Below are positions 3,149-63,815 of a stretch of DNA of 64,000 nt, in pieces. How positions within the stretch are numbered: position 1 is the first letter of the stretch; each line of letters begins with the position of its first letter. Source of the DNA: Eledone cirrhosa (Eukaryota). The DNA is taken from contig OZ024741.1 in NCBI GenBank assembly GCA_964016885.1, forward strand, positions 400,396,001-400,460,000. The letters run 5' to 3'. Position numbers and translations under genes: made by a program. The notes beneath the pieces are model-generated. The model saw only the letters and a list, made by a program, of their open reading frames with translations, searched no databases and was not told the origin of the DNA.

Positions 3149-4785
3149 CAGAACATGATATGAAGGCTAAAAAACACTTGTGGATAGTGCAGTTTTAAAT
3201 CAACATATGAAAAGTGGTTTTAGATTGATGTGTGATATTGGGAAAAATATTTTATTTAGAGAGGGGGGGGGGTGGAAAGGATGAAAAAGGGGAGAGATGA
3301 GAGTGAAGGTGGAGAGGGAGAGATGGGTGATAGAGAGAAAGAGATAGTTTTTATAACTGAGAGAAGATATATTGTTTTACATAGAGAGGTTGAAAACCGT
3401 TGGAAGATAATGTATAAATTAAAAGAATTTGAAAATTAACGAAGGGAAAAATATGTACGAGGAAAGAAAGGGAGTTTATGTATGAAGATAGAGAGAAAAA
3501 ATAATAATTGCGGATGAATATTCTAACGTCAAAAAGGTGTATGTTGATAAGTATTGTGGCAATTTCAAAATTAACGAAGAGAAAAAATTATTAAGGTTTG
3601 TGTGTAGAAGGATTTGAGAAAGATAATGTGAAGTTAAAGTTTGTATATTGAAGGAGTTGATAATATGTGCGAAGAAAGAGTTAATATGTATTAAGAATGA
3701 GTTCGTTGATGGGGAGAAAAAAATTACCATTATCTCTAATCTAGATTCTATAATAAATAGACGTACAGATTTGTTTTCTATCTGCCTGCATAAATTCCAT
3801 AGGACTTTTCACAAAGTATACAGCTAATATTCAATTCTTTATCAATTTAGAATCTTCTCTCAAAGGTACATATACATACACCTCCTTAAAATATACCCAT
3901 CTTCCTACCTTACTTCAAAGGGCATTATACACTCTATAATACTTGTTTACTCATTACCCTCATTCTATCTTCACCTTGTAAAATCCTTCATAACATATAC
4001 ATTTGTTTTTTTGACGTTAGAATATTCATCCGCAATTATTATTATTTTTTCTCTCTATCATAAAACTTTTTAATCTCAATTTCATCCTTAATTTATTATT
4101 TTTTTCTCCCCATCAACGAACTCATTCTTAATACATATTAACTCTTTCTTCGCACATATTATCAACTCCTTCAACATACAAACCTTAACTTCACATTATT
4201 TTTCTCAAATCATCTAATACACAAACCTTAATAATTTTTTAATACATATTAACTCTTTCTTCGCACATATTATCAACTCCTTCAATATACAAACTTTAAC
4301 TTCACATTATCTTTCTCAAATCCTTCTACACACAAACCTTAATAATTTTTTCTCTTCGTTAATTTTGAAATTGCCACAATACTTATCAACATACACCTTT
4401 TTGACGTTAGAATATTCATCCGCAATTATTATTTTTTCTCTCTATCTTCATACATAAACTCCCTTTCTTTCCTCGTACATATTTTTCCCTTCGTTAATTT
4501 TCAAATTCTTTTAATTTATACATTATCTTCCAACGGTTTTCAACCTCTCTATGTAAAACAATATATCTTCTCTCAGTTATAAAAACTATCTCTTTCTCTC
4601 TATCACCCATCTCTCCCTCTCCACCTTCACTCTCATCTCTCCCCTTTTTCATCCTTTCCACCCCCCCATCTCTAAATAATATATTTTTCCCAATATCACA
4701 CATCAATCTAAAACCACTTTTCATATGTTGATTTAAAACTGCACTATCCACAAGTGTTTTTTAGCCTTCATATCATGTTCTCCTG

Positions 4786-5985: not shown

Positions 5986-6320
5986 ATCATCATTTCATTT
6001 TACGTCCGCTTTTCCCTGCTTGCAAGGGTGGGACGGGAACTGATTCTGGCTTGATTTCTACAGCTGGATGCCCTTCCTAACACCAACCTCATTTACAGTG
6101 AGTGTTGAGTGCTTTTTTGCCGTGGCACCTCCACGACCACTTTACAGTGGAATGATAGGGACTGGGGTCCCTATCATCTCATTTCTACAGCTGAGTAAAC
6201 TGGAGCAATGTGAAATAAAATGTCTTGCTCAAGGAAACAACACATCACCTGGTCTGAGAATTGAACTCACAACCTTTCGATTGCAAGGCCAATGCTCTAG
6301 CCACTAAGCCATGTGCCTCC
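5986..6320 (-). mobile_element. Complete tRNA-head SINE with RTE-derived 3' tail
   Basis: tRNA head at 6240-6320, hairpin at 6152-6177, tail shared with RTE 3' UTR (ggttggtgttaggaagggcatccagc). Further copies at 12385-12707 and 41800-42054. Confidence 0.85.
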
Positions 6321-12384: not shown

Positions 12385-12707
12385 CATCATCATTTCATTT
12401 TACGTAGGCTTTTTCCCTGCTTGCAAGGGTGGGACGGGAACTGATTCTGGCTTGATTTCTACAGCTGGATGTCCTTCCTAACCTCATTTACAGTGAGTGC
12501 TGGGTGCTTTTTTGCCGTGGCACCTCCACGACCACTTTGCAGTGGAGTGATATGGACCCCAGTCCCTATCATCTCATTTCTACAGCTGAGTAAACTGGAG
12601 CAATGTGAAATAAAGTGTCTTGCTCAAGGAAACAACACATCACTCGGTCTGAGAATTGAACTCACAACTTTTTGATTGCAAGGCCAATGCTCTAACCACT
12701 AAGCCAT
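12385..12707 (-). mobile_element. tRNA-head SINE with RTE-derived tail
   Basis: Near-identical to 5986-6320. Confidence 0.85.
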
Positions 12708-12954: not shown

Positions 12955-13270
12955 TTCTTCTTCTTCTTCTTCTTCTTCTTCTTCTTCTTCTTCTTCTTCT
13001 TCTTCTTCTTCTTCTTCGTCTTCTTTTTTTTTTTTTTTGCCCACATATTTCTGAGAGGGTCATGGGGACAGAGTCCTTAAACATTCCTTCCAGTGGGTCT
13101 TGTCAAAAATAACCACCTGCAACTGATCTGGCAGGTGAACCAGTTGGTTTTTGCCTGTAAAATCTGGAAGGAGTGTTTAAGGACTCTACCCCACGACCCT
13201 CTCAGCAATAAGTGGGTGAAGAAGAAGGAGGAGGCAGAGGAGAAGGGGGAGAAGAAGAAGAAGGAGAAGG
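12955..13270. repeat. Inverted pair of RTE/Expander-like 3' ends with (CTT)n and (GAA)n tails
   Basis: 13039-13093 is the reverse complement of 13164-13217; same family as 44930-45305 and 51733-52420. Confidence 0.75.
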
Positions 13271-13344: not shown

Positions 13345-13512
13345 AGTGGTAAATCGACATACCTGCGACAAGTTGCCTTACTTCAAATTATGGCCCAAAT
13401 TGGAAGTTTTGTACCAGCTGCATATGCCTCCTTCAGAATTGCAGATCAAATATTTACTCGTATTGGTAGTGATGATGATCTAGAAACTAATGCTTCTACT
13501 TTTATGGTTGAA
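13345..13512 (+). CDS. MSH4: MSH4 exon, [25 protein letters not shown]...[21 protein letters not shown]
   Basis: gacag| acceptor and |gtaaga donor; 56 codons; MutS ATPase motifs. Confidence 0.97.
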
Positions 13513-13582
13513 GTAAGAATATTAATTTAATATTTTTCTAGACTTAAGCATTAATGAAAGCTGTTAATAAATATAGGTAATA

Positions 13583-13775
13583 ATATATAGTAATAATAAT
13601 AAATTTGAAGACTAAAATCCAAAGAGGGCTCGATAAGGATAAATATATATCAAATATATAAGAACTGTAGAGCAAATATTTATTAAAATAACAGATTAAA
13701 GTTTAAGCAAAGAATCGCTGCTTTCACCCTCAAGCAGCAATTCTTTGCTTAAACTTTAATCTGTTATTTTAATAG
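13583..13775 (-). mobile_element. PLE terminal fragment with fold-back palindrome
   Basis: Reverse complement of the 3' end of the 31650-34917 PLE; arms 13681-13723 and 13732-13774. Confidence 0.85.
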
Positions 13776-14527
13776 ATAATAATATATATATATGTGTGTT
13801 AGGTAATTCTGAAGAAAATGCAAAGGAAAAAAGAGTGCTCTATGTATAGAACAGAGCTATTTAATTAGAAAGTAAACACAAAATATAACCTTTGGTAATG
13901 GAGTAGTTATATTTTGTGTTGTTCACTTTCTAATTAGATATATTATAAATATATGCATATTTTATATTTTTGTATTATTGTTTTATATTATGTATGTATT
14001 TTTCAATGGAGATCTTAGTCCATATATTCTCAGATGTGTCATACTATATATATATATATATATATATATCGATAGTTGATTGACTTTCATCAAATTGGAG
14101 CGAGGAAACAATGTTTTCATAGGTCTTTCCAATTGCTAATACTATCTATCATTCGCAACTCCAGGTAGAAGTAGCAATGTGAAATAAAGTGTTTCACTGA
14201 AGGACATAAGGCATCGCCCAGTCTGGGAATCAAAATCACAACCTCATGATTGCGAATCCAATTGTCTAACCAATATATACATATATATATATATATATCA
14301 TCATCATCATCCATTTTTCATTGCTTGAATGTGTAAACATATATATATGTATATACATATATATATATAAGTTTAAACAACATATAAAAGAATATATATC
14401 AATATTGTCAACTGAGAAACTTCTAGTTGTACATATGTACAGAACAATTAATTTGTAAGAAGATATACTTACTTCAAGATAGTAAGTAATGATAAAAATA
14501 AAAATATAATATATATATAATATATAT

Positions 14528-14747
14528 ATAGGAACCAGTAAGACCCCGACAGCTGAGCTCAAGCCGTTTCGACGGCTAATTCTGGACTAAAAAAAAGTCC
14601 AGAATTTTAGTCCAGAATTAGCCGTCGAAACGGCTTGAGCTCAGCTGTCGGGGTCTTACTGGTTCCTATTACCCACTCTACTACCTCAAGTATTGAGTAC
14701 TTTGGTGCGTTATGGTCCACCTGGTTCCTTACCACATTTCCTTCGTA

Positions 14748-14748
<1 letters not shown>
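14528..14748 (+). mobile_element. PLE-type terminal fragment: 65-bp-arm palindrome carrying the 3' half of a hammerhead
   Basis: Arms 14528-14592 and 14605-14669; GAAA cggc-ttgagctca-gctg TC; flanked by (TA)n. Confidence 0.7.
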
Positions 14749-14781
<33 letters not shown>

Positions 14782-14786
14782 AAAAT

Positions 14787-14970
14787 ATAATTGTTTCTAC
14801 TTTTGGCACAAGGCCAGCAATTATTCCAGTGTATTACTGGTACTTTATTTTATCGACGCTGTAAGGATGAAAGGCAAAGTTAACCTCGGCGGGATTTGAA
14901 CTCAGAACATAAAGGGCCGTAACTCTTTGCTGCAAAACATGGCGACCGACCCTCTACCGATACTGCCAAT
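14787..14970 (-). mobile_element. SINE family A
   Basis: Same consensus. Confidence 0.85.
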
Positions 14971-15315
14971 GTATATAATTACTCCCTTACAGTTGGGTAA
15001 AGAATATGGTTGAGTCTGACTGCTATATCTAGCACCCCTTACCATTGTCCACATACCTCTGCCCATCTGTATGACACTAATCGCATGATAATTCTACCGT
15101 TCGAAATTATCTCTGGTAGCAGATAACTTGGTTGAACCCTTTCTTGTTTGAAAATGTTCTGACAAGTTGAGATTTTCACAGCACTATGAGCTGAGGTTTG
15201 CTCAATGAAACTGCAGTTAATCAAACTCTAAGTCAATAGCTAAATATTTTCTTTATCTTATTTGTGTTTCCCAAATATATTTATATATATATACATACAA
15301 CCAATTTTATTTCAG

Positions 15316-15388
15316 ATGAGAGAAATCAACTACATTATTCAGAATGCTTCAGATTCTTCACTGATAATAATTGATGAACTTGGACGAG
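15316..15388 (+). CDS. MSH4: MSH4 exon, MREINYIIQNASDSSLIIIDELGRG (Walker B)
   Basis: ttcag| acceptor and |gtaaga donor; DELGRG motif; ends in phase 1. Confidence 0.96.
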
Positions 15389-17063
15389 GTAAGAAAAAAC
15401 ACCTTTTCTCACATTCAATATTACTTATTTTGGTTTGTTTCACACATCTTCATCACCATCTCATTTCTATGTTTGTTTATCTATTCATACACATGCTGGA
15501 TGTATCCTCTCCCATACAGCATCTCGTTACTTTTCTTTGATCCTTGACAACTTCTTTGTGATGTTCAATTTTCTGGGATCAGCTTTCATTACATCTTCTC
15601 CATACCTTCCTCCACAGGTTCCTACCACTTGTATTGATTAACTCATATTTACCCAACTGTCATCCTCCATATGTATCACATGTCTGTACCAGCACAGTCT
15701 CCTCTCTTACACACATCTGATTCCTCTAACAACCCAGCTTTTCTCTCAGCTGTTCTGCTATTTGCAGTAACATTACACAGGGACATGGTAATTCTTGATT
15801 TGGTACCTGGGCATGTGGTTAGCCCACTGGGATTGAAAGAGCCCTAGTTCTTGTTTAGGATATCATTCAAGGAGAAGTAAAACTCAGATGTAAAACCTGC
15901 AACTCAATGGCAGCCAATGATGATGACCTGTTTTTCTTTTTGGATACCTTGAGAGTGGGATTGGTCCAGTGTTAGGCCTTTCTTCACTTAATAAAGCTTG
16001 AAGCACAGGCATCACTTGATCTGACTTTCACATGTGTTGTGTGAGCATGGTCTTTTCTTTTTTTCTTTCACTGCAACATATGCAGAAAGGAATCAAGTCC
16101 TTGGAAGTCATGTTCATGTATGAGTAAAAGGTTAAATGATGACAGTTCTCGAAACAAAGATGCAGCCATTATACATTACACACCAAATGAAATACATTCA
16201 GCTCATTTCTTTCCAGCCTTCATATATCCTCCTCAAAAGTCAGGCTTTGTCAATGATTAGCACATTTCCTACTTCACTTAGGTCTGTTGGGCCTACTTAG
16301 GCAAATATTTCTTCCCCTGCACATTCACTCCATTCAGGAAACTCTCACATTTCCAAGGTTCTATAATTTCCTCTCTTAATGCACTATAAATGTAAAATCA
16401 TTTTCTGTTTAACCTTTTTGAAACTAAACTCCCTGAAACCACCCTTAAAGTGTTTATATCTATCTAAAAATCTTCAATCTTAATTTTATGTAAAATCCTT
16501 AGTTATGTTCCAAATACCAGTTTAATAACTGGAATGACAGCAGCCCATCTGAGGAAGGAACCCCTATGAGGTGGGGTTGATGTCACTGGCCATTGTTTGC
16601 AGAAACGCCAAAGCAATTTTGTCCATGGGGCACAGCTGTAACACTGCTCTGATCTAGGTGTAGAGTGTCACCCTCTCCTCCTCACCCATTTTTTGTTCCT
16701 TTGTCTAGTAGTCTTTACTCTTCCTCTCCTTTTCCTATCAATTATGGCATTTATAGTCCTTTCCAATACCGCTCTCTAATTTTGTATGATTAAATAAAAT
16801 TTCTTTCTATGTATCTAAATTACTACAATAATTTCATATAATTGCTACAATAATTTCATAAAAATAATTTCATATAATCAGGAAGTTAGCTATTGATATA
16901 TTTCAAAATCCTGCAAATTCTTGGTTACATTCAAAATGATTTATAAATCACAAGAGATCTTTCATTTAAAAATTAGAACAAACTAAACCATTTCCTTCAT
17001 TTTAAACTGTTTGATATCAACTTTTGGTACATTAAGGGAATTTCAATATTTATGTCTTTAAAG

Positions 17064-20794: not shown

Positions 20795-22644
20795 TGGATT
20801 TGTCGATAAGGTAGCATATACAGAGTACGAAAATAGACCCAGTAGAAATAGATCCCGTCGCATTTGTTGGTATAACCCACCATATAATATGGAGGTGGCC
20901 ACACCATTATCTAAGATCTTTCTTTCCCTTATTGCGAAATTGTTTCCCCCTACACATAAATATAGTAAAATTTTTAATAGAAATACTATTAAAATTTCTT
21001 ACTCTACGACTCCTAACCTTGCACATAACATCACAGCTTCAAATTTAGCTAAACTACCTAGCCGTAGGAACACGTGCAACCCTGTAGTTAGTACTAACTG
21101 TAATTGTAGGAATCGGGTTGATTGCCCCCGATCCGGTAATGCCACTCTAGTAACATTGTCTACAAATGTAAGGTTGAAACACCCACGTCCCGTAGGGCCT
21201 ACATAGGGTTAACCGCCAATAGATTCAAGCAGCGTCTTTACATGCATACCCATTCTTTTCGTTACCCTCTAAGAAGGAATATGACGTCACTTTCAGCTTA
21301 TATCTGGAGTCTAAAAAGACAACCACACCCAATATAAGTTACACTGGGAGATCCTAGCTAGGGCTAGATCGTATAACGGAAATAAAAGACCATGTGACCT
21401 CTGCGCCGCTGAGGCCCTGGAAATACTCTACGCCACAGACCACATCTTAAACAAAAAATATGAGGTAATTTCGGCTGTAAACGTAAATTGCACAAAACTT
21501 TCCTGTATTACAGCCCCACGTTATACCCTAACGGATGGTACGATCTATACGTGGATATTTTACGTCTTGATGTGGTAGCTAAGTATATGTTTTGTTTATA
21601 CCATTACTTATTTGCATAGGTAAGTCTATTACCTGTATGTTTTGTGAAGGTACGTATACTTTCTCGTACGTATATTTGATTGTATATGTTATGGCGTATA
21701 ATTTTTTTATATATTCTGGTACATATGGTTTGGTTATGTGTATACGGGAGTTTTGAGTCTGTGTGAGTATGCAGGTTCGTAAGTATGTAGGGTGTGTGTA
21801 TATGTGTACTTCATGTTTTGGTTGACTTACGTCTCCGAACATGTGTGTATTTACATGTAGGTATGTGTGTGCGCTTGTTATATACGTATTCATTTATTTA
21901 TATACGTTTATTTAATTATTTATTTATTTGTATACACGCACACACACACGCACATATTTATATGTGCGTGGTTTTGTATACCTATGGTAAGTGTTTTCGC
22001 GTATGCTTGTGTATGTACGTATTTGCATGCGCGTATGTAGTATGTATTTATTTAATTTCTATTACCTCTGTATTGTATTTTATTTACATTATCCTTAACT
22101 CTGAAGCGGAGATTCTTTCGGTTTCCTAGTTACAATTTTAGTCTACGACTTCTGCTATACCATTTATATGGTCTTGTCTTTGCGTGCAATTGTTCTCCAC
22201 GCTCCACATATGACGTATTATCTTCGTTTTTTCTGTTCATTGCCAGAGAACGTCTCTATGAACCACCTAAGAGAACATTAGTCTACGACCTCTTTTATAC
22301 CATAAACATGGTTATGTCTTTGCGCGTAATTGTTTTTCACCGCTCCAAATAATGACGTATTATATTCGTTTTTTCCCGTTCTTTGCCAGGGAACGTTTCC
22401 ACGAACCAGAGTATCGTCTTCCTGTCTTCCTCCGGTTGCAATGTTTTTTGAAATATCCACTTCTGCGTTTACCGATTGACTTTGTTAGTTTCAGAAGATC
22501 CCGTTAAGGGTGAAATCAGCGATTCTTTGCTTAAACTTTAATCTGTTATATTAATAAATATTTGCTCTACGGTTCTTATATATTTGATATATATTTATCC
22601 TTATCGAGCCCTCTTTGGATTTTAATGTTCAAATTTATTATTAT

Positions 22645-22650
<6 letters not shown>
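20795..22650 (+). mobile_element. 5'-truncated copy of the PLE family at 31650-34917
   Basis: Near-identical to 33097-34917 (WYNPPYN, CNCRNRVDCP, AYIG, CDLC); ends in (TA)n. Confidence 0.92.
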
Positions 22651-22720
<70 letters not shown>

Positions 22721-22886
22721 TATTTTCCGTAGTGTTGTAATATAGATATTACACACAATAGATGGATAGCTCACGCAGAGTTTGCTCGACGGTTCCAGTT
22801 GTAGTTCCAGTTGTAGTTGTAGTTCCAAAAGTAATCCGGAGAAAAATAGAAGGATTTTAATGGATACAGTTTAGTTAAGAAGGAAT

Positions 22887-23007
22887 TTATTGACACGTGT
22901 TTCTATAACAGTTACATAACCTGAAAACAGCTGCTATCTACAAAGTATTAGTTATGTAGACATTCAATATTTCAATGTTATTATCGACTGTCATTTCATC
23001 GGAATAA
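22887..23007 (-). ncRNA. Hammerhead motif (inverted copy of 27021-27141)
   Basis: Reverse complement of 27021-27141. Confidence 0.63.
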
Positions 23008-23522
23008 TTTTACTGAGGACCTGTTTGGTTTTTATAGAGAATATTAGGAGGGAGGGGTGAAGTTGTTAGAAGAATAGTTGAGGGAGTGGTTTTTTGATAG
23101 CAGTGAGAATTTTTGGTGGCAGTGAGTAATTAGATTTCCATCTGTTGTTTTGACATTTTTATAGAATATATTATTGGTTATTTTTCTAAATCTATAGAAG
23201 GATTAGAGATAGTATAGATATGCGTGGTTGGTTTTGTGTTTGCACTTAATTAACATTCAGGCTTAAATTTTTCTTTCAAGTGTACGTATCCTTTCGCCCA
23301 CGCATTCACACACAAACATATATGCACACCTCTACAAAATACATATACTCACATACACATACTTACATGCTCATACTTACATACATATACACATGCATAC
23401 ATATATATATACACATATATACATGTACATACATACGCGTTCATGTGTATACATTTTCATACTCAACTTATCTTTATATACACACGTATAGACACACACA
23501 TATATACACACATACTCCAGTC

Positions 23523-23571
<49 letters not shown>

Positions 23572-26448
23572 ACTTTAATACATGAATGCACTTACATCTA
23601 ACTATACACATCAAACATATATATATATTTACTTATTTATATACATTTTCACATCTATATACATACTTATGGTCGCTTTTAGACACATTCATTATAGCAT
23701 ATTTGCACCTATTCCCATCAGCATATATTTCCATTATTAGTGTGGTAATTTAAGGTTATTAATATACATATATATGTTGAGAAGAGATTGTTTCTATATT
23801 TTTCTAACTAGATTGAGGTTTATATAGTTGGGGGGTAGTCCCTCTTTTATGTAATATTCAGCTTGTAGTGGGGAAAAAGGGTTTTAGTTCGGTGACGGCA
23901 GAATAATGTTCGTTCAATTCTGTTATTCAGCAATTTCTTCTTGTGTGTGATTATGTAATAGATCTCAAGATTACACAATTTGCAGAAATTGTGGCTCCTG
24001 GAAAAGCTTTGGGTTTTAGCTAATTTCTCCCATTTTAGGGTAAACTTTTGATCGCTATCCCTGAGCGTCCAAGCTTTTTCTGCTAAAGTTGTTACATTTC
24101 TTTGGCTCTGGTGTTTTATTGAGTAAGAATGCCTATATAATCGAGATTTAAACGATGTTGCTGTTGATCCCACGTAATACCACTCGTTGCCTCCGGATTT
24201 AATGGTACACTTATAAATAATATTTTTTTCCAGGCAGTTATTGCCGAGGGGGCAGTTGTCAGGATAGGTGCAGTTACAGTTGTGTACGTTGGGTTTTCTC
24301 TGGAGTAGTATTGCGGACGAACTTAGGTGTGGTTTAGGATTTTGTGGTATTTGTGTGATGTAGGAAAATGTCTCTTAATTATTTTAAAGAAGAGTACTGG
24401 TACCGGCGGTACCCACCTTCAATCTTAAGGACCATAAGGTAAACTTTGATAATGACCCTGAAATTAGATTAATCTGCCCCTCTAAATCAGATATAGGTAA
24501 AATAAGCAAATATATCTTAGATAGAATCATCCCCCAAATTAAGGCTAAGGTTAACATTAAACTCTGGGGGAAGACCCAAGAAACAATAAGATGGTTTAAT
24601 AGCATTAGCAATAAGAAAAAATCTAAGTCTATCCAGTTTGATATCGACGAATATTACACATCGATATCACTTGAAACTTTGAATAGAGCCATTAAGTTTG
24701 CTAAGGATAACTCTGACCTTACAAACGATGAAATTAAGATTATATTAGAAGCTAGGAAAACTATAGTCAAATTTGAGAACAGTTATTGGGTACGTAAAGA
24801 TAGACCCTCTAACTTTGACATAACAATGGGCTCTAACGATTCGGCAGAAATAACTGATATTGTGGGGTTATTTATCGCCTTTAGACTCCAGGAAAAATTC
24901 AGCAATCTCCACGGCGGAATATACCGCGACGATGTTCTCCTCCTAGTTAAAAACCTAAATAACCAAAAACTAGAAAAACTACGCAAAGATATAAGAAAAC
25001 TACTACTCGAAATAGGACTAACTATAACATATGAATACAACCTTAAAGTGGTTAACTTCCTGGATGTCACACTCAATTTAAACTCTGGTCTCATTAAACC
25101 GTTTCATAAATTGAATGAAAATCTCAAGTACGTAAATGTTGGGTCTAACCACCCCATCTCTATAATTAAATCTATCCCTAAAAATATTTCCCTTAGAATC
25201 TCGGGTCTATCTTCTAACATACAAGTATTTAAGGAACACGCCGAGTACTACGATAACGCCCTCAACAAAATAGAATATATAGATGAGAACAATCAAAACA
25301 CCCAAAATAAATCCCACATAGGTAGATATAATAACACAACACCAAACCACACTTACTACCATAGTATACACACCAGTAAACCAACAAATAAATCTAATAG
25401 AAAGCGATGCAAAGAGTACTTATGGTATAACCCTGAATACAATAGTTCCATTAGTACAAATTTACCAGTACTCTTCTTTAAAATAATTAAGAGACATTTT
25501 CCTACATCACACAAATACCACAAAATCCTAAACCCTACCACTATAAGACTGTCATACTCTACAGCGTTAAACCTTGAACAACACATAAAAAAGATCAATA
25601 CTAGAAGGTTAAACGAAAACACTAAAAACTTAAGTACAAAGAAAACAAAAAGAAACAGTAGACAATACACTACAGAACATAAATAAACCACACCTAAGTT
25701 CGTCCGCAATACTACTCCAGAGAAAACCCAACGTACACAACTGTAACTGCACCTATCCTGACAACTGCCCCCTCGGCAATAACTGCCTGGAAAAAAATAT
25801 TATTTATAAGTGTACAATTAAATCCGGAGGCAACGAGTGGTATTACGTGGGATCAACGGCAACATCGTTTAAATCTCGATTATATAGGCATTCTTACTCA
25901 ATAAAACACCAGAGCCAAAGAAATGTAACAACTTTAGCAGAAAAAGCTTGGACGCTCAGGGATAGCGATCAAAAGTTTACCCTAAAATGGGAGAAATTAG
26001 CTAAAACCCAAAGCTTTTCCAGCAGCCACAATTTCTGCAAATTGTGTAATCTTGAGATCTATTACATAATCACACACAAGAAGAAATTGCTGAATAACAG
26101 AATTGAACGAACATTATTCTGCCGTCACCTAACTAAAACCCTTTTTTCCCACTACAAGCTGAATATTACATAAAAGAGGAACTACCCCCCAACTATATAA
26201 ACCTCAATCTAGTTAGAAAAATATAGAAACAATCTCTTCTCAACATATATATGTATATTAATAACCTTAAATTACCACACTAATAATGGAAATATATGCT
26301 GATGGGAATAGGTGCAAATATGCTATAATGAATGTGTCTAAAAGCGACCATAAGTATGTATATAGATGTGAAAATGTATATAAATAAGTAAATATATATA
26401 TATGTTTGATGTGTATAGTTAGATGTAAGTGCATTCATGTATTAAAGT

Positions 26449-26505
<57 letters not shown>

Positions 26506-27020
26506 GACTGGAGTATGTGTGTATATATGTGTGTGTCTATACGTGTGTATATAAAGATAAGTTGAGTATGAAAATGTATACACATGAACGCGTATGTATG
26601 TACATGTATATATGTGTATATATATATGTATGCATGTGTATATGTATGTAAGTATGAGCATGTAAGTATGTGTATGTGAGTATATGTATTTTATAGAGGT
26701 GTGCATATATGTTTGTGTGTGAATGCGTGGGCGAAAGGATACGTACACTTGAAAGAAAAATTTAAGCCTGAATGTTAATTAAGTGCAAACACAAAACCAA
26801 CCACGCATATCTATACTATCTCTAATCCTTCTATAGATTTAGAAAAATAACCAATAATATATTCTATAAAAATGTCAAAACAACAGATGGAAATCTAATT
26901 ACTCACTGCCACCAAAAATTCTCACTGCTATCAAAAAACCACTCCCTCAACTATTCTTCTAACAACTTCACCCCTCCCTCCTAATATTCTCTATAAAAAC
27001 CAAACAGGTCCTCAGTAAAA

Positions 27021-27141
27021 TTATTCCGATGAAATGACAGTCGATAATAACATTGAAATATTGAATGTCTACATAACTAATACTTTGTAGATAGCAGCTG
27101 TTTTCAGGTTATGTAACTGTTATAGAAACACGTGTCAATAA
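27021..27141 (+). ncRNA. Type I hammerhead motif with U4C core and ~90-nt stem II
   Basis: ttatt CCGATGA aatgacag...ctgttata GAAA cacgtg TC aataa. Confidence 0.65.
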
Positions 27142-27176
27142 ATTCCTTCTTAACTAAACTGTATCCATTAAAATCC

Positions 27177-27227
<51 letters not shown>

Positions 27228-31649: not shown

Positions 31650-34600
31650 AGGGAGTAGCGTAAATGTTAGCAGCTTTCACTCGGTTGAGCACTCTATTGA
31701 CTTATATTCATCATGCAGAAACAACATCTGAATATTTCTACAAAGAACATACCCGTACCAAGCAGGAAAACATACCTAAAACTCATGATACAGAAAACAG
31801 ACGCGTTCATTAAAAGGTTGAGTTGGCGTGCCTTTTATTTCGATAATCCGCAAAAAGCAGACAACAAACAGGATAAATTTGGGTTTAAAAACCTATAATA
31901 ACCCCCGTGTAACCCAGCATTGCTACCCTTCGAAAATGATGTCTTGATACTAATACGGAGTATCACATTTCGGAATATGAGCAATTCCTTCCAGCAGGAC
32001 CTGAAGAATAGAATTCGTTCTATTAAGGATTCTAATGCCGTGCACGTCCATTCCGACAAAACTGGCAACCTATATCAAGTGGAGCGCAGTACTTACCATC
32101 AACTACTACATAATGCTGTAACTAAGGATTACGTAAAACTAATCGGTGCGTCATCAATGAAATCAACGATGCTGGGTTTAAAATCATATCTGATCTCAAC
32201 ATCCTGGACCGGATCGAACCTCTGGACCCTATTTCTCCCCACTTTACCCTGAAGGATCACAAATCCAATTTTCCGAACAACCCCTCTATTCGGCTTATTA
32301 ACCCTATTAAGTCCGATTTAGGTAGACTTAGTAAAACGATTCTTGATAGAATTATACCTGAAATTAGAAGTTTGGCCCCTCTTGCACTATGGAACAATTC
32401 TTTCGTGGTGATTGATTGGTTCAACGGCATATGTAACAAGGAACATTGCCGTTTTATCCAATTCGACATCAACAATTACTACTCCTCCATCACTTTACCA
32501 CTTCTCCTTAGAGCTATCAATTTCGCTAAAACACTCACAGTGGTTAAGGATTTCGAAGTTGATGTCATCCTCAATGCCCGTAAGTCGGTGAATAATTTCG
32601 ACGACTCTATTTGGATTAAAAAATCCAATAGTACCCCATTCGACGTGAGTATGGGCACCAGCGATTCTGCGGAGATTACTGATCTTATCGGCCTTTTCCT
32701 TCTTTTCTCTATCAAGGACGAATTCCCCAACGCGGGCGGTGGTTTGTACCGTGATGATGGTCTTTTGACCATGACTAAGTGCGAACCTCGTGCTTGCGAC
32801 AGGTTCAGAAAAGAACTCACAGCCTTCTTTAAAGGCTTCAACCTCTCTATACAGGTTGCGGCCAATCTCTCGTCCGTTAATTACCTCGACGTTACCCTCA
32901 ATTTATTGAATGGGTTGTATTACCTGTATAGAAAGCCGAATGATACGCTTAATTACATAAGTAAGCATTCCAACCATCCTGCCAGCATAACCAAGAACCT
33001 GGTAAGAAACGTTTCGTTGAGGCTTTCCCGTCGATCTACTTACGAGCATATTTTCAACGACCATTCCACTTATTACAATGAAGCTCTTGCTCGGAGTGGA
33101 TTTGTCGATAAGGTAGCATATAAAGTGTATGAAAATAGACCTAGAAGAAATAGATCCCGTCGCATTTGTTGGTATAACCCACCATATAATATGGAGGTGG
33201 CCACACCATTAGCTAAGATCTTTCTATCCCCTATTACGAAGCATTTTCCCCCTACACATAAATATAGTAACATTTTTAATAGAAATACTATTAAAATTTC
33301 TTACTCTACGACTCCTAACCTTGCACATAACATCACAGCTTCAAATTTAGCTAAACTACCTAGCCGTAGGAACACGTGCAACCCTGTAGTTAGTACTAAC
33401 TGTAATTGTAGGAATCGGGTTGATTTCCCCATTTCGGGAAATGCCTCTCTAGTAACATTGTCTACAAATGTAAGGTTGAAACACCCACGTCCCGTAGGGC
33501 CTACATAGGGTTAACCGCCAATAGATTCAAGCAGCGTCTTTACATGCATACCCATTCTTTTCGTTACCCTCTAAGAAGGAATATGACGTCACTTTCAGCT
33601 TATATCTGGCGTCTAAAAGACACCCACACCCTATATAAGTTACACTGGGAGATCCTAGCTAGGGCTAGATCGTATAACGGAAATAAAAGACCATGTGACC
33701 TCTGCGCCGCTGAGGCCTTGGAAATACTCTACGCCACAGACGACATCTTAAACAAAATATTTGAGGCAATTTCGGCTTGTAAACATAAATTGCACAAAAC
33801 TTTCCTGTATTACAGCCCCAGATTATACCCTAACGGATAGTACGATCTATACGCGGATATTTTACGTCATGACGTGGTAGCTAAATATATGTTATGTTTA
33901 TACCATTACTTATTTGCTTAGGTAAGTATATATTACCTGTATGTTTTGTGAAGGTACGTATACTTTCTCGTACGTATATTTGTTTGTATATGCTATGGCA
34001 TATATTTTATATATTCTGGTACATATGCTTTTGGTTGTGTATACGTGAGTTTTGCGTCTGTGTGAGTATGCGGGTTCGGACGTATGTAGGGTGTGTGTAT
34101 ATGTGTACTTCGTGTTTTGGTTGACGTACGTCTCCGAACATTTGTGTATTTACATGTAGGTATGTGTGTGCGCTTGTTATATACGTTTATTTATATACGT
34201 TTATTTAATTATTTGTATACACGCGCACACATATTTATATGTGCGTGTATTTGTATACCTATGGCGTGTGTTTTCGCGTACGCTTGTGTATGTACGTATT
34301 TCGATGCGTGTATGTATTTATTTATTTCAATTACCTCTGTATTTTATTTACTTTATTCTTAACTCTTAAGCGGAGAATCATTCGGTTTCCTAGTTACAAT
34401 TTTAGTCTACGACTTCAGTTATAACATTTATGTGGTTTTTTTCTTTGCGTGCAATTGTTCTCCACGCTCCACATATGACGTATTTTCTTCGTTTTTTCCG
34501 TTCATTGCCTGAGAACGTCTCTATGAACCACCTAAGAGAATATTAGTCTACGACTTCTTTTATACCATAAACGTGGTTCTGTCTTTGCGTGTAATTGTTT

Positions 34601-34911
34601 TTCACCGCTCCTATTAATGACGTATTATATTCGTTTTTTCCCGTTATTTGCCAGGGAACGTTTCCACGAACCAAAGTATCGTCTTCCTGTCTCCCTCCGG
34701 TTGCAACGTTTTTTTTAAAATATTCACTTCTGCGTTTACAGATTGACTTTGTTAGTTTCAGAAGATCGCGTTAAGGGTGGAAGCAGCGATTCTTTGCTTA
34801 AACTTTAATCTGTTATTTTAATAAATATTTGCCCTACGGTTCTTATATATTTGATATATATTTATCCTTATCGAGCCCTTTTTGGATTTTAGTCTTCAAA
34901 TTTATTATTAT

Positions 34912-34917
<6 letters not shown>
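31650..34917 (+). mobile_element. Near full-length Penelope-like element (Hydra-like clade), frameshifted ORF 31713-33840
   Basis: STKNIPVP..IKRLSWRA, DKTGNLY, KDHK, FDINNYYSSI, MGTSDSAE, LYRDDG, YLDV, WYNPPY, CNCx5 linker, YIG, CDLC, ILNK..ACKHK; AT-rich pLTR ending at (TA)n. Confidence 0.93.
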
Positions 34918-35005
<88 letters not shown>

Positions 35006-35130: not shown

Positions 35131-35134
<4 letters not shown>

Positions 35135-35306
35135 GTTATTCCGGGTTGAATCGGAGGTAACCAGAGTAAGTAAGGTACTCAATACATTGCAGAGTATAAA
35201 AGTTTTAATATAGATGAGATTCTACAGGACTAGAACTGTTTCATTCTTTAGAAATCATCATGATGATTTCTAAAGAATGAAACAGTTCTAGTCCTGTAGA
35301 ATCTCA

Positions 35307-35313
<7 letters not shown>
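35131..35313 (-). mobile_element. PLE-type terminal fragment with perfect 53-bp-arm palindrome centred on a hammerhead core
   Basis: Arms 35208-35260 and 35261-35313; TGATGA tttctaaagaat GAAA cag-ttctagtc-ctg TA; within (TA)n. Confidence 0.7.
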
Positions 35314-38602: not shown

Positions 38603-39080
38603 ACTGGTTAGTTGTTTGTTCTATGTGTGTGTGTGCCCTCACTCTGTCCTTAATTGTAAGTTGTGATGTTGCTATTCCATTCATGTAATAGCAACATCAC
38701 AACTTACAATTAAGGACAGAGTGAGGGCACACACACACATAGAGCAAACAACCAACCAGTAACATGTAAATAAACAAATAAATAAACAAATATAAACACA
38801 CACAGACACCCAGATGTAACACATGCGCAAACTAAGCACGCAACACACACAAAAACAAGATGGCGTAGGACAGGACAAAGGAGAGGCACAAAAACAAAGA
38901 AAAGAATCCCCAGTCACTGAAGAGGTCACAGAATGTGTGACGAAAGAACTTTGACAATATATGAATAACCGTCCGGTTATGGACCAACCAACCAACCGGA
39001 AATTTATAATAAATTGGAGTGAAAGCAACAGGTGCGTGTGTTTCTTATTGGCAACATGACCCTCCCAAAGCATAACAATA
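38603..39080 (+). mobile_element. PLE pLTR fragment related to 17641-20035, with fold-back 5' end
   Basis: Inverted repeat 38603-38676 / 38687-38760; 3' end atgaccctcccaaagcataacaatata is shared with 20010-20035; HHR at 38913-38955. Confidence 0.8.
38913..38955 (+). ncRNA. Minimal type I hammerhead motif
   Basis: gtca CTGAAGA g gtcaca-gaatg-tgtgac GAAA gaac TT tgac. Confidence 0.65.
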
Positions 39081-41260: not shown

Positions 41261-42104
41261 GAAAGAAAAAAGAGTTTTTTCCTTTCCTTCCTCTTCTCAC
41301 TCTCCTCAAGCTTTCTATTTGTTTATTTCTCATTCTATCTATAAACACACACACACACACACACACATATAGATCATCATCACAATTTAACGTCCATTTT
41401 CCACACTAGCATGGGTTAGACGAGCTGTCCCATTGTAAGACAAGTCAGATCAGGTGACTGTGTTTTACTCCTTCAGAACTGTTTCTCGTGTGGTTTCTAT
41501 GTCAACCACATTTACAGTGTGAACTGGGTATTTTTTTATCATGGCACCAAAATGTCATGTCACCAACATATGTATATGTATATGATAGTCACATCTCCTC
41601 AGTTTCAGCTCCGCAGACTGTATGTATCATCATCATCATCACCGTTTTACGTCTGTTCTTCCACGCTAGTATGGGTTAGACGGGTTGTCCTGTTGTGGAC
41701 CTTGTCTTACTCATACCGGAACTGATTCTGGCTTGATTTCTACAGCTGGATGTCCAACCCTTGCAAGCAGGGAAAAGCAGACATAAAATGATGATGATGA
41801 TGATGCCTTTCCTAGCACCGACCTCATTTACAATGAAGGCTGGGTGCTTTTTTGCCGTGGCACCTCCACGACCACTTTGTAGTCGAATGATAGGGACCCC
41901 AGTCCTATCATCTCATTTCTACAGCTTAGTAAACTGGAGCAATGTGAAATAAAGTGTCTTGCTCAAGGAAACAACACATCACCCGGTCTGAGAATTGAAC
42001 TCACAACCTTTCGATTGCAAGCCCAATGCTCTAACCACTAAGCCATGTGCCTTCATATATACCTATCATATATATATATATGATATATGTGTGTGTGTAT
42101 ACAT

Positions 42105-53327: not shown

Positions 53328-53492
53328 CACAGTGGCTTAGTGGTTAGAGCATTGGGCTTGCAATCGAAAGGTTGTGAGTTCAATTCTCAGACCGGGTGAT
53401 GTGTTGTTTCCTTGAGCAAGACACTTTATTTCACGTTGCACCAGTTTACTTAGCTGTAGAAATGAGTTGATAGGACTGGGGTCTCTATCATT
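53328..53492 (+). mobile_element. SINE family B head
   Basis: gtggcttagtggttagagc..gttcaattc..ccttgagcaagacacttt. Confidence 0.85.
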
Positions 53493-54426: not shown

Positions 54427-57400
54427 TTAGCCTTACTGAGGTATAATGTGATGTCTATGAGGGTGCTTGGTTGTTCCAGCACCTTAGCCTTGCTATAACT
54501 GGAACTTACCAAGTTATATGGTGATTCTCCAGGTGTGGTGCTTGGTTGCTCCACTGCCTTAGCCTCGCTATTACCTCTGACCTTACCGACATATCTGGTG
54601 ATGCTCCCAGTGAGGATTTTTAGTTGTTCCAGCACTCTGGCTTCACTATGACCTGGTCATCAAGTAATGTTCCAGGTAAGAGTGCTTGGTTGTTTCAACA
54701 CCTTAGTTACGCTATCACCCCTAGCCTTACCAAGGTACCAAGTAATGCTCCAGGTGAGAGTGCTTGGCTGTTCCACCACCTTAGCCATGCTATCACCCCT
54801 AGACTTACCAAGGTACCAAATAATTCTCGAGGTGAGAGTGCTTGGCTGTTCCACCACCTTAGTCATGCTATCACCCCTAGCCTTACCAAGGTACCAAGTA
54901 ATGCTCCAGGGGAGAGTGCTTGGCTGTTCCACCACTTAGCCATGCTATCACCCCTAGCCTTTCTAAGGTACCAAACAATGCTCCAGGTGAGAGTGCTTGG
55001 CTGTTCCACCACCTTAGCCATGCTATCACCCTAGCCTTACCAAGCTACCAAATAATGCTCCAGGTGAGAGTGCTTGGCTGTTCCACCACCTTAGTCTCAC
55101 TATCATCCCTAGCCTTACCAAGGTACCAAGTAATGCTCCAGGTGAGAGGGCTTGGCTGTTCCACCACCTTAGTCTCACTATCACTTCTGGCCCTACCAAT
55201 GTACCAAGTAATGCTCCAGGTGAGAGTGCTTCGCTGTTCCACCATCTTAGCCATGCTATCACCCCTAGCCTTACTAAGGTACCAAGTAATGCTCCAGGGG
55301 AGAGTTCTTGGCTGTTCCACCACCTTAGCCATGCTATCACCCCTAGCCTTACCAAGGTACCAAATAATGCTCCAGGTGAGAGTGCTTGGCTGTTCCACCA
55401 CCTTAGCCATGCTATCACCCCTAGACTTACCAAGGTACCAAATAATGCTCCAGGTGAGAGTGCTTGGTGGTTCCACCACCTTAGTCACGCTATCATCCCT
55501 AGCCTTACCAGGGTACCAAGTAATGCTCCAGGGGAGAGTGCTTGGCTGTTCCACTGACATAGCCATGCTATCACCTCTAGCCTTACCAAGGTACCAAATA
55601 ATACTCCAGGTGAGACTGCTTGGCTGTTCCACCACCTTAGCTATGCTATCAACTCTGGCCTTACCAAGGTACCAAGTAATGCTCCATGTGAGAGTACTTG
55701 GCTGTTCCACCACCTTAGCCATGCTGTCACCCTGGCCTTACCAAGGTATGTTGTGATGCTCTAGGTGAGAGTGCTTGGTTGTTCCACCACCTTAGTCTCA
55801 CTATCATCCCTGGCCTTACCAAGGTACGAAGTAATGCTCCAGGTGAGAGTGCTTGGCTGTTCCACCACCTTAGTCTCACTATCACCTCTGGCCCTACCAA
55901 GGTACCAAGTAATGCTCAGGTGTTAGTGCTTGGCTATTCCACCACCTTAGCCATGCTATCACCCCTAGCCTTACCAAGGTACCAAATAATGCTCCAGGTG
56001 AGAGTGCTTCGCTGTTCCACCACCTTAGCCATGCTATCACCCCTAGACTTACCAAGGTACCAAATAATGCTCCAGGTGAGAGTGCTTGGTGGTTCCACCA
56101 CCTTAGTCACGCTATCATCCCTAGCCTTACCAGGGTACCAAGTAATGCTCCAGGGGAGAGTGCTTGGCTGTTCCACTGACTTAGCCATGCTATCACCTCT
56201 AGCCTTACCAAGGTACCAAATAATACTCCAGGTGAGACTGCTTGGCTGTTCCACCACCTTAGCCATGCTATCACCCCTAGCCTTACCAAGGTACCAAATA
56301 ATGCTCCAGGTGAGAGTGCTTGGCTGTTCCACAACCTTAGCCATGCTATCACCCCTAGCCTTACCAAGGTACCAAATAATGCTCCAGGTGAGAGTGCTTG
56401 GCTGTTCCACCACCTTAGCAATGCTATCACCCCTGGCCTTACCAAGGTACCAAGTAATGCTTCAGTGAGTGTGCTTGGCTGTTCTACCACCTTAGCCATG
56501 CTATCACCCCTAGCCTTACCAAGGTACCAAATAATGCTCCAGGTGAGAGTGCTTGGCTGTTCCACCACCTTAACCATGCTATCACCTCTGGCCTTACCTA
56601 GGTACCAAGTAATGCTCCAGGTGAGAGTGCTTGGCTGTTCCACCAACTTAGCCATGCTATCACCCCTAGCCTTACCAAGGTACCAAGTAATGCTCCAGGG
56701 GAGAGTGCTTGGTTGTTTCAATACCTTAGTTATGCTATCACCCCTAGACTTACCAAGGTACCAAGTAATGCTCCAGGTGAGAGTGCTTCGCTATTCCACC
56801 ACCTTAGCCATACTATCACCCCTAGCCTTACCAAGGTACCAAGTAATGCTCCACGTGAGAGTGCTTGGCTGTTCCACCACCTTAGTCTCACCCTCATCCC
56901 TGGCTTACCAGGGTACCAAGTAATGCTCCAGGTGAGAGTGCTTGGCTGTTCCACCACCCTAGCCATGCTATCACCCCCAGCCTTACCAAGGAACCAAGTA
57001 ATGCTCCAGGTGAGAGTGCTTGGCTGTTCCACCAACTTAGCCATGCTATCACCCCTAGCCTTACCAAGGTACCAAGTAATGCTCCAGGTGAGAGTGCTTG
57101 GTTGTTTCAATACCTTAGTTATGCTATCACCCCTAGCCTTACCAAGGTACCAAATAATGCTCCAGGTGAGAGTGCTTCGCTGTTCCACCACCTTAGCCAT
57201 GCTATCACCCCTAGCCTTACCAAGGTACCAAGTAATGCTTCACGTGAGAGTGCTTGGCTATTCCATCACCTTAGCCATGCTATCACCGCTAACCTTACCA
57301 AGGTACCAAGTAATGCTCCAGGCGAGAGTGCTTGGCTGTTCCACCACCCTAGCCATGCTATCACCCCCAGCCTTACCAAGGTACCAAGTAATGCTCCAGG

Positions 57401-60400
57401 TGAGAGTGCTTGGCTGTTCCACCACTTAGCCATGTTATCACTCCTAGCCTTACAAAGGTACCAAATAATGCTCCAGGTGCAAGTGATTGGCTGTTCCATC
57501 ACCTTAGCCATGCTATCACCCCTAGCCTTTACAAGGTAGCAAATAATGCTCCAGGTGAGAGTGCTTGGCTGTTCCACCACCTTAGCCATGCTATCACTCC
57601 TAGCCTTACCAAGGTACCAAGTAATGCTCCAGGTGACAGTACTTGGCTGTTCCACCACCTTAGTCTCACTATCACCCCTAGCCTTACCAAGGTACCAAGT
57701 AATGCTCCAGGGGAGAGTGCTTGGCTTTTCCACACCTTAGCCATGCTATCACCTCTGGCCTTACCAACGTACCAAGTAATGCTCCAGGTGAGAGTGCTTG
57801 CCTGTTCCACCACCTTAGCCATGCTATCACCCCTAGCCTTACCCAGGTACCAATTAATACTCCAGGTGAGAGTGCTTGGCTGTTCCACCACTTTAGCCAT
57901 GCTATCATCCCTAGACTTACCAAGGTACCAAGTAATGCTCCAGTTGAGAGTGCTTGGCTGTTCCACCACCTTAGCCATGCTATCACCTCTAGCCTTACCA
58001 AGGTACCAAGTAATGCTCCAGGTGAGAGTGCTTGGCTGTTCCACCACCTTAGCCATGCTATCACCCCGAGACTTACCAACGTACCAACTAATGCTCCAGG
58101 TTAGAGTGCTTGGCTGTTCCACCACCTTAGCCATGCTATCACCCCTAGACTTACCAAGGTACCAAATAATGCTCCAGGTGAGAGTGCTTGGTGGTTCCAC
58201 CACCTTAGCCATGCTATCACACCTAGACTTACCAAAGTACCAAATAATGCCCCAGGTGAGAGTGCTTGGCTGTTCCATCACATTAGCCATGCTATCACCC
58301 CTAGCCTTTACAAGGTACCAAGTAATGCTGCAGGTGAGAGTGCTTGGCTGTTCCACCACCTTAGCCATGCTATCACCCCTAGCCTTACCAAGGAACCAAA
58401 TAATGCTCCAGGTGAGAGTGCTTGGCTGTTCCACCACCTTAGCCATGCTATCACCCCTAGCCTTACCAAGGAACCAAATAATACTCCAGGTGAGAGTGCT
58501 TGGCTGTTCCACCACCTTAGCCATGCTATCATCCCTAGACTTACCAAGGTACCAAGTAATGCTCCAGTTGAGAGTGCTTGGCTGTTCCACCACCTTAGCC
58601 ATTCTATCACCACTAGCCTTACCAATGTAACAAGTAATGCTCCAGGGGAGAGTGCTTGGCTGTTCCACCACTTAGCCATGCTATCACCCCTAGCCTTACC
58701 AAGGTACCAAGTAATGCTCCAGGTGAGAGTGCTTGGTTGTTTCAATACCTTAGTTATGCTATCACCCCGAGACTTACCAAGGTACCAAATAATGCTCCAG
58801 GTGAGAGTGCTTCGCTGTTCCACCACTTAGCCATGCTATCATCCCTAGACTTACCAAGGTACCAAGTAATGCTCCAGGTGAGAGTGCTTGGCTGTTCCAC
58901 CACTTAGCCATGCTATCATCCCTAGACTTACCAAGGTAACAAGTAATGCTCCAGGGGAGAGTGCTTGGCTGTTCCACCACTTAGCCATGCTATCACCCCT
59001 AGCCTTACCAAGGTACCAAGTAATGCTCCAGGTGAGAGTGCTTGGCTGTTCCACCACCTTAGCCATGCTATCACCCCGAGACTTACCAAGGTACCAATTA
59101 ATGCTCCAGGTGAGAGTGCTTGGCTGTTCCACCACCTTAGCCATGCTATCACCCCTAGCCTTACCAAAGTAGCAAATAATGCTCCAGGTGAGAATGCTTG
59201 GCTGTTCCACTACCTCAGCCATGCTATCACCCCTAGCCTTACCAAGGTACCAAGTAATGCTTCACGTGAGAGGGCTTGGCTGTTCCACCACCTCAGTCTC
59301 ACTATCACTTCTGGCCCTATCAAGGTACCAAGTAATGCTCCAGGTGAGAGTGCTTGGCTGTTCCACCACCTTAGCCATGCTATCACCCCTAGCCTTACCA
59401 AGGTACCAAGTAATGCTCCAGGTGAGAGTGCTTCGCTATTCCACCACCTTAGCCATGCTATCACCCCTGGCCTTACCAAAGTAGCAAATAATGCTGCAGG
59501 TGAGAGTGCTTGGCTGTTCCACCATCTTAGCCATGCTATCAACCCTAGCCTTACCAAGGTACCAAGTAATGCTCCAGGTGAGAGTGCTTGGCTGTTCCAC
59601 CACCTTAGCCATGCTACGCACCTAGCCTTACCAAGGTACCAAGTAATGCTCCAGGTGAGAGGGCTTGGCTGTTCCACCACCTTAGCCATGCTATCACCCC
59701 TAGCCTTACCACGGTACCAAATAATGCTCCAGGTGAGAGTGCTTGGCTGTTCCACCACTTAGCCATGCTATCACTCCTAGCCTTACAAAGGTACCAAATA
59801 ATGCTCCAGGTGCAAGTGCTTGGCTGTTCCACCACCTTAGCCATGCTATCACCCCTAGCCTTACCAAGGTACCAAATAATGCTCCAGGTGAGAGTGCTTG
59901 GCTGTTCCATCACCTTAGCCATGCTATCACCGCTAACCTTACCAAGGTACCAAGTAATGCTCCAGGTGAGAGTGCTTGGCTGTTCCACCACCTTAGTCAT
60001 GCTATCACTCCTGGCCTTACCAAGGTACCAAGTAATACTCCAGGTGAGAGTGCTTGGCTGTTCCACCACCTTAGCCATGCTATCACTTCTGGCCTTACCA
60101 AGGTATGTTGTGATGCTCTAGGTGAGAGTGCTTGGTTGTTCAACTGTCTTAGTCACGCTTTCACTCCTGGCCTTACCAAGGTATGTGGTGATGCTCCAGT
60201 TGAGAGTGCTTGGCTGTTCCACCACCTTAGTCTCACTATCATCCCTGGCCTTACAAAAGGTACCAAGTAATGCTCCAGGTGAGAGTGCTTGGCTGTTCCA
60301 CCACCTTAGTCTCACTATCATCCCTGGCCTTACCAAGGAACCAAATAATGCTCCAGGTGAGAGTGCTTGGCTATTCCATCACCTTAGCCATGCTATCACC

Positions 60401-63555: not shown

Positions 63556-63815
63556 AAATATAAGCAAATAATTGAATGAAGGAGTTAGAAGCCATTAAAA
63601 CAATTCGTTATATTGAGCTATATAAAGAATTGTTTTAACGGCTTCTAACTCCTTCAATTATTCATTTGCTTATTCCCGCTCTGCTTAAACCATACGCTAT
63701 ATTTAACTCTGCTAACCCAAGCATTGAGCACACTCCGCTTTGGCTATTGGTATTTAGTAATCTGTATTGCACCTCTTTGTACTTCTCTGCTTACTCCTCT
63801 CCTACGATACTTTAT

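Follow-up and report, generated by a model that had tools for sequence, protein, structure and literature searches.

What kind of reaction leaves a long, perfect palindrome with its fold point inside a hammerhead ribozyme? The question is raised by positions 14528–14748 of the window, by which we mean the whole 64,000-nt stretch of Eledone cirrhosa DNA that was analysed (genome size, 3.0 Gb). The original prediction described a palindrome with 65-bp arms, and it is real: the arms, 14528–14592 and 14605–14669, are complementary at 65/65 positions, enclose a 12-nt spacer and have no outward extension. Among the six non-simple short-spacer palindromes kept from a scan of the window, this one is the longest. 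The GAAA, the stem III with its palindromic loop, the UC and the GGGG that follow the hairpin are also as described; what the insert retains of a type I hammerhead is its 3′ half. Taken as a whole, it is a 220-bp head-to-head palindromic stub with a one-sided tail (Table 1).

Table 1. Features of the palindromic stub, its surroundings and a second stub (window positions; element numbering from +1 as defined below)
Feature	Positions	Strand	Remarks
Host intron, stub in sense orientation	13345..15389	+	MutS domain V exons 13345–13513 and about 15317–15389
Left (TA)n target remnant	14509..14527	.	target-site duplication unreadable
Short arm	14528..14588	-	element +1..+61 inverted; terminal CCTAT fused with (TA)n target
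Junction insert	14589..14608	.	A run 14589–14596, direct copy of +1..+11 at 14596–14606, TT
Long arm	14609..14747	+	element +1..+139; 138/139 identical to L065 pLTR
Stem II 3′ strand of hammerhead	14609..14626	+	5′ strand, UUGAGAA core and TATA-like box missing
GAAA core, stem III with palindromic loop, UC	14627..14649	+	predicted cleavage after 14649 (+41)
Stem I 3′ strand (GGGGT)	14650..14654	+	
One-sided tail, 78 nt	14670..14747	+	lies between the first and second putative RT start sites
Right (TA)n target remnant	14748..14778	.	
Family 2 stub	35131..35313	-	same anatomy as the 14528–14748 stub

The outer end of the short arm is identical in most other copies, and the centre (14589–14608) is particular to the window copy. 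The central four A/T pairs of the palindrome and its spacer are not element sequence, and three of the T's at the centre could be the native bases −3 to −1. We infer that the short arm is cDNA from the first of two reverse transcriptase (RT) start sites. Because the long arm is almost identical to that of an intact copy, L065, the insertion is recent. An assembly artefact was ruled out by the unique non-inverted flanks, the fixed outer ends and the occurrence of thousands of such loci on many contigs.

Could such a stub still be functional? The window copy has no complete type I core, as the 5′ core strand (UUGAGAA) is missing from 14528–14748, and it is also without the 5′ strand of stem II and the TATA-like box. 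Folded alone, the half ribozyme is not unusually stable; Rfam gave zero matches to hammerhead models over the window and, over the insert, only weak matches to miRNA-type hairpins below the gathering score. Because it is without the TATA box and the core, the stub is predicted to be inert, an ordinary dead end in an intron. The flanking exons match Pfam MutS_V at consecutive profile positions (9–64 and 65–88) and belong to a gene that may be MSH4.

The same intron holds another palindrome of the window, the third, with 43-bp arms and an 8-nt spacer (13567–13774); the stretch adjoining it recurs at 22504–22670 and 34771–34937 and likely represents another family of Penelope-like element (PLE) stubs. 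Other hairpins or inverted repeats lie at 12986–13267, 38603–38760, 63577–63656 and 3245–4688. A 78-bp unit (88% matches, 50% GC) is repeated ~106 times in tandem at 54661–62893, and a shared repeat with tRNA-like heads (6254–6311, 12649–12706, 41988–42045 and 53332–53393) is probably a SINE family.

The parent element and its hammerhead

From which element does the stub derive? Judged by the stub's relatives and their motifs, the parent is a young PLE of the Hydra clade. A search with positions 14590–14750 returned 1,074 candidates; the 40 that were scored are 93–100% identical over most of the query, and nearly all of them have an inverted partner with the identical end base. Genome-wide, 5,211 sites match a 36-nt tail pattern exactly, and head-to-head junctions (15–45 nt between GAAA motifs) number 12,449 across subfamilies, with 0 matches to the reversed control in both cases. 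Starting from L025, a copy without inversion, a reverse transcriptase frame was reached, and at least 40 copies of this frame are about 100% identical across 300 nt. A full unit measures 3,540 bp and carries a single ORF of 717 aa (intact copy L065). In our numbering, +1 corresponds to window position 14609, the predicted ribozyme cut falls after +41, the short and long arms end at +61 and +139, respectively, and the ORF starts at +232. When the 171 nt preceding the hammerhead were searched as DNA, not even the query itself was returned, so that this search is uninformative.

In the ORF, the RT is followed by a C-terminal GIY-YIG domain (YRDD at 348 and YIG at 606 in L065). The RWK and DKT motifs appear as RWR at 37, a conservative change, and as DKT in L062 or DKI in L065, and the linker motifs are found as CNCPDRSIC at 572 (CxCX5C), CNLC at 670 (CxxC) and CKH at 698 (CxH). 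The ORF lacks a CCHH motif, as the stretch from GIY to YIG has a single Cys. Pfam and PDB sequence searches with the 717-aa ORF gave no matches, and its Atlas neighbours carry GIY-YIG, RVT_1 and HTH_animal on some members. Family copies prefer (TA)n as the insertion site. The placement in the Hydra clade is based on these motifs and on an RT comparison by eye, in which the blocks match one by one those of the Hydra alignment in the available part of the PMC8557442 supplement. The insert does not qualify as a non-LTR retrozyme, a term that in bioRxiv 10.64898/2026.07.22.740005 denotes tandem repeats that are non-coding and contain one complete type I hammerhead per unit: the window has a single stub with half a ribozyme, and the parent element is coding.

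Related sequences occur elsewhere in the window. A frameshifted, near-full ORF of a related Hydra-type element (31713–33837, plus strand) is 42–54% identical to the 717-aa protein, and a remnant of a further endonuclease region lies at 20862–21476. A large inverted repeat at 22848–27180, with arms of about 743 and 817 nt (99%), encloses a Hydra-like ORF remnant (23868–26128) in the same head-to-head layout at kilobase scale.

What does the hammerhead look like before inversion? In intact copies, ACCCC and UUGAGAA are followed by a stem II region of 54 nt, GAAA, the stem III with palindromic loop, UC and GGGGU (62 identical rows, drawn from overlapping loci); these copies thus have the type I elements YUGANRA, GAAA and UH joined by stems I–III. 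Non-inverted copies had been predicted to carry CCCC, a CUGAUGA core and a stem II closing on GUC-GAAA; they exist with all of these features except that the core is UUGAGAA. The idea of a long native stem II was also correct, but its 5′ strand differs from the inverted copy that had been equated with it, and the long perfect hairpin of the window is a product of inversion rather than the native stem II. In the latter, an internal loop separates the basal helix from an upper helix with its apex at −7 to −4. The unconstrained minimum-energy fold is the hammerhead, at −22.7 kcal/mol, and is not more stable than those of shuffled sequences (z 0.41).

The pLTR hammerhead is thus a U3-A8 variant with a long stem II. 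Core position 7 varies between G and U in two older copies, and the older subfamilies (L110, L209, L210, L212 and L215) combine C3 with A8, a 3-8 mismatch, and have altered TATA-like boxes; their cores possibly mark a route between C3-G8 and U3-A8. The U3-A8 pair is a described PLE variant, found in Schistosoma Cercyon (PMC4209133). The minimal PLE hammerheads in the available text of that paper resemble ours in being type I with a short stem I, a basal stem II of 7–8 bp with an unpaired base, a palindromic loop III and U3-A8 covariation, and in occurring as opposite-strand pairs 100–700 bp apart. On the other hand, the stem II here has 54 nt with a TATA-like box and a putative RNA start, a feature not mentioned in that text. 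Type I hammerhead-like motifs were also seen in the flanks of L013 (two, 482 nt apart), L123 (two, 591 nt apart) and L151; two of these motifs have U3-A8 cores and two a long stem II, and they may be retrozyme repeats.

Arm pairing and two proposed priming sites

How could two overlapping arms of unequal length be joined head to head? We give a probability of roughly 70% to a reaction in which both nicked strands of a (TA)n target prime near the 5′ end of one RNA and both cDNAs run off at the RNA start. A promoter within stem II of the hammerhead would direct Pol II to start at +1, leaving an RNA 5′ end with only half a ribozyme. The element protein would nick both target strands, one of which would prime at +61 and the other at +139, and the 78 nt between these sites would become the tail. 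The second RT would displace the first cDNA, sometimes stalling at +28 to +56. At the RNA 5′ end, the RT would add a few untemplated bases and jump to a free 3′ end, giving a palindrome if it landed on the partner cDNA and a longer copy if it landed on the RNA 3′ end. The centre of the window copy would then record the addition of A's at run-off, a first start on the partner cDNA that was aborted, and a second one that succeeded.

The arms are paired in a strict manner. A short arm ending at +61 is joined to a tailed arm ending at +139 in 38 of 39 junctions (34 scored by script and 4 from reading the printed ends; 1 was unclear). Against this pattern, 1 of 54 inverted arms in the tail-anchored sample (L133) is tailed, as are both upstream arms in L062. 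Both arms of one insertion carry the same subfamily variants, and their divergence is 2.0 per 50 sites, compared with 5.7 after shuffling (the lowest of 5000 shuffles gave 4.3). Furthermore, both arms start exactly at +42 in 37 of the 50 listed junctions near the cut (339 in all); by hand count, 25 of these have a non-native insert and 12 are blunt, ambiguous with +41/+43. Because the arms of an insertion agree and stop jointly at +42, they probably come from one RNA template; separate RNAs would make joint stops at this rare end scarce.

Could a single priming event produce the same pairs? Strict pairing of short with long arms, arm agreement and joint +42 stops fit either twin priming or fold-back. 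In the latter case, a cDNA primed at +139 would run off, fold back or close into a hairpin, copy itself to +61 and be joined to the (TA)n target by TAT microhomology, and later deletions would blur the centre. Such a route would account for all three observations without a second primer, and palindromes of this kind have been interpreted in print as self-priming, in that case with an antisense template (PMC3846280). However, fold-back cannot yield short arms that hold +1 to +35 when the long arm does not. Among 47 simple pairs, the short arm extends at least 20 nt further 5′ than the long arm in 6, where it starts at +1 or +2 and the long arm at +28 to +56, and the reverse occurs in 0; small asymmetries are even (17 vs. 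20). This count leaves aside 7 of the 54 inverted arms (L087, L110, L114, L133, L135, L137 and L138) with complex centres, long-long pairs or a long copy, and a later central deletion can mimic an asymmetry of this kind. Fold-back also cannot yield lone jumps from the short end or full-length copies ending at +61, which exist, and loops of 0–1 nt at +42 would probably be too small for snap-back priming. As the large asymmetries are one-directional and the +61 arms act as first strands, we favour twin priming and regard fold-back as unlikely.

The jumps bear on where priming takes place. The pLTR-body junction has 306 matches, and in 11 of 30 loci examined an arm reaches about +1 or +42 and then continues at +203 to +959, mostly with an overlap of 0–2 nt or a few added bases at the joint. 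Arms with the short end leap from +1, +2 or +42 to +232 to +358 (L198, L208, L216, L218, L220 and L221), and arms with the long end jump to +203 to +959 (L193, L194, L196 and L214); those of L208, L214 and L216 start from +42. L194 and L195 are one locus, in which an identical jump from +254 occurs twice. Because the landings lie 3′ of both priming sites, priming would occur near the 5′ end of an RNA with the body downstream, and the enzyme would leave this template at +1.

The wall at +1

Is +1 the start of the RNA? Of 70 tail-anchored copies, which are 70 of the first 71 matches on contig C1 and, like the other samples, not random draws, 42 start at −3 to +7, 22 at +12 to +56 and 6 more than 90 nt upstream, and none (0/70) starts between −4 and −91. 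Likewise, all 78 arms of 39 junctions (38 regions) start at −4 or later, although the search pattern allowed further reach. The TATA-like box begins at −29, within stem II, and TTAGTC at +1 and TCATTT at −4 resemble what we take to be initiator motifs. The non-T bases before +1, counted by hand for a cap-derived G, are G in 10, C in 6 and A in 4 cases, with no clear G excess; many arms begin at +5 to +8 instead of +1, which counts against a sharp start there. A second wall, at +42 in a minority of arms, coincides with the predicted ribozyme cut and is indirect evidence that the hammerhead may cleave itself in vivo.

The 35131–35313 element allows a comparison with a second family (family 2). 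The original prediction treated the two inserts as kin. They have the same anatomy, and the exact 11-mer GTATTGAGTAC occurs in the window twice, at 14690–14700 in the tail of our stub and, on the minus strand, in the 35131–35313 element; a local alignment of both stubs, however, gives a modest score of 57, which 2.4% of 1000 shuffles reach, so that the common anatomy appears to be the stronger link. Both arms of the 35131–35313 stub start at +8, which is U4 of a CUGAUGA minimal hammerhead; the short arm ends at +58, and the long arm is tailed. In family 2, which has 4,654 exact matches to a 31-mer, the minimal hammerhead is of the canonical CUGAUGA type, TATAAATA lies at −30, and +1 is the start of stem I, so that the wall lies upstream of the whole hammerhead. 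Of 18 inverted arms, 8 start at +1 to +3, 9 at +7 to +39 and 1 upstream. Because the two walls differ in their position relative to the ribozyme and share their distance below the TATA box, +1 is likely the RNA start, as read from wall and motif.

In the available portion of the PMC8557442 supplement, the Hydra entry before Hydra-1_Obim has a tail 11-mer one base off GTATTGAGTAC and TAAATAC just upstream of its hammerhead, as in both window families. This single-change near match was the only one there; no exact GTATTGAGTAC was found, and line breaks may mask others. The 11-mer and TAAATAC could possibly be protein-binding motifs.

A pause of the RT at folded RNA or bound protein in a longer transcript would also leave a wall, and +1 does fall in the predicted upper helix of stem II. 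We consider a pause improbable, as +1 lies mid-helix and not at the helix base, 11/11 long copies pass it, the wall of family 2 is outside the hammerhead and again 30 nt below a TATA box, and the untemplated A/T runs at junctions look like run-off. Even less probable is the route of the original prediction, in which the cDNA would snap back at the apex of the native stem II, prime itself and replace one half of the core. The native stem II is indeed long, its apex lies a few bases from the wall, and 353 strand rows have an arm that reaches −5. Such arms make up at most about 3% of the 12,449 junctions (the search patterns differ slightly), and most arms stop short of the apex, with 0/78 beyond −4; the apex loop followed by its paired strand is kept in 0 of the 100 listed junctions reaching −5, and the family 2 wall is not in stem II at all. 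The least likely alternative is a palindromic non-autonomous master, MITE-like or SINE-like, copied as a unit: the constant outer ends and the excess of stubs over pLTR-body junctions (5,211 vs. 306 exact matches) would suit it, but the 39 other junctions have 34 distinct centres, which often consist of untemplated A/T runs or of short repeats copied from a template, no shared non-native centre was seen as a dominant class, stubs exist in every subfamily variant of the autonomous element, and arms from 61 bp to over 2 kb share their outer ends.

If both cDNAs run off at the RNA start, how do long copies get past +1? Stops at +1 were found in 42 of 47 first passes and in 0 of 11 second passes of long copies (Fisher p = 1.9e-8), where the first-pass count omits L092 (5′ pLTR), the second-pass count omits L209 (which stops at +68) and L215 (composite), and L201–L204 are counted once. 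Because long copies pass +1 on the second pass, a second type of template or an efficient jump would be needed; a circular or multimeric RNA, or a homology-guided jump through the repeated +1 to +41, would explain the passage. At one locus, four head-to-tail units of 3,542 bp differ from one another by 2–7 mismatches and from another copy by 31–34; this array could also be a product of tandem duplication. Head-to-tail arrays of three or four ~3.54-kb units lie at G000:C1:91.470–91.490 Mb (L260 and L261), C1:437.20 Mb and C2:320.55 Mb.

Relation to known elements

In LTR retroelements, strong-stop DNA is primed close to the 5′ end of the RNA, runs off that end and makes a strand-transfer jump, and in LINE-1 twin priming two target-primed cDNAs are joined centrally. 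The element may work in a way analogous to both without being a member of either class: unlike in LTR elements, the primers would be target DNA and not tRNA, and neither an integrase nor an RNase H domain was recognised in the ORF; unlike in LINE-1 twin priming, the two cDNAs overlap rather than abut.

The layout of an inverted truncated copy, a one-sided tail and (TA)n is already known, according to the available parts of PMC8557442 and PMC3846280. As in Hydra-1_Obim and the Hydra clade in the former, the element has a single ORF with RT followed by GIY-YIG and the RWR, DKT, CxCX5C, CxxC and CxH motifs, and shares the (TA)n target, partial tandems, inverted 5′-truncated copy and one-sided tail. 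It differs from that clade, as presented there, in its 3.54-kb unit (generally <3 kb), its 78-nt tail (30–40 nt) and its U3-A8 hammerhead with a 54-nt stem II (canonical); the family is not Hydra-1_Obim, for which a different hammerhead is listed. Penelope of Adineta vaga, in the accessible part of PMC3846280, has TATA and Inr-like motifs in its pLTR and, like the present element, an inverted pLTR, a junction palindrome and an optional tail. Its palindromes are read there as self-priming on an antisense template, whereas the junctions here fit twin priming on sense RNA better.

In vitro, both strands are cut and then extended by the protein of the Anolis carolinensis Poseidon element, and RT begins at two internal sites with the tail between them (PMC11167929). 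As in our family, the product length is set by the RNA 5′ end, on a mostly uncleaved template. The steps after priming are unvalidated in that study, which has no reads at the hammerhead cut. Unlike those data, our genomic junctions reveal a wall downstream of a TATA-like box, pairs of arms that both stop at the cut site, and jumps; the ORF here starts downstream of both priming sites and not inside stem II. Within the literature searched, mostly open-access, neither a run-off-and-jump reading nor a promoter inside stem II was found.

What could this mean for PLEs in general? The assembly of pLTRs, inverted copies and tails is stated to be unresolved in PMC11167929 and the available text of PMC8557442. 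Tentatively, and at slightly less than even odds, we suggest that PLEs go through a strong-stop cycle like that of LTR elements, with target DNA as the primer. In this family, a promoter within the hammerhead would split the ribozyme, +1 to +41 would play the part of a terminal repeat in strand transfer or in the making of circles, ribozyme cutting would take place in the germ line, and the stubs would be failed transfers onto the partner cDNA. The window insert belongs, by the motifs of its parent element, to a new Hydra-clade family whose other members give unusually sharp evidence on mechanism: thousands of near-identical natural reaction products with base-level walls at the putative RNA start and at the predicted ribozyme cut. 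The walls at +42 are indirect evidence of PLE hammerhead cutting in vivo, and the family yields exact predictions for 5′ RACE and in vitro experiments on an open mechanism. The fold point likely marks the RNA start and not a self-primed hairpin, which would help explain how Penelope-like elements copy themselves.
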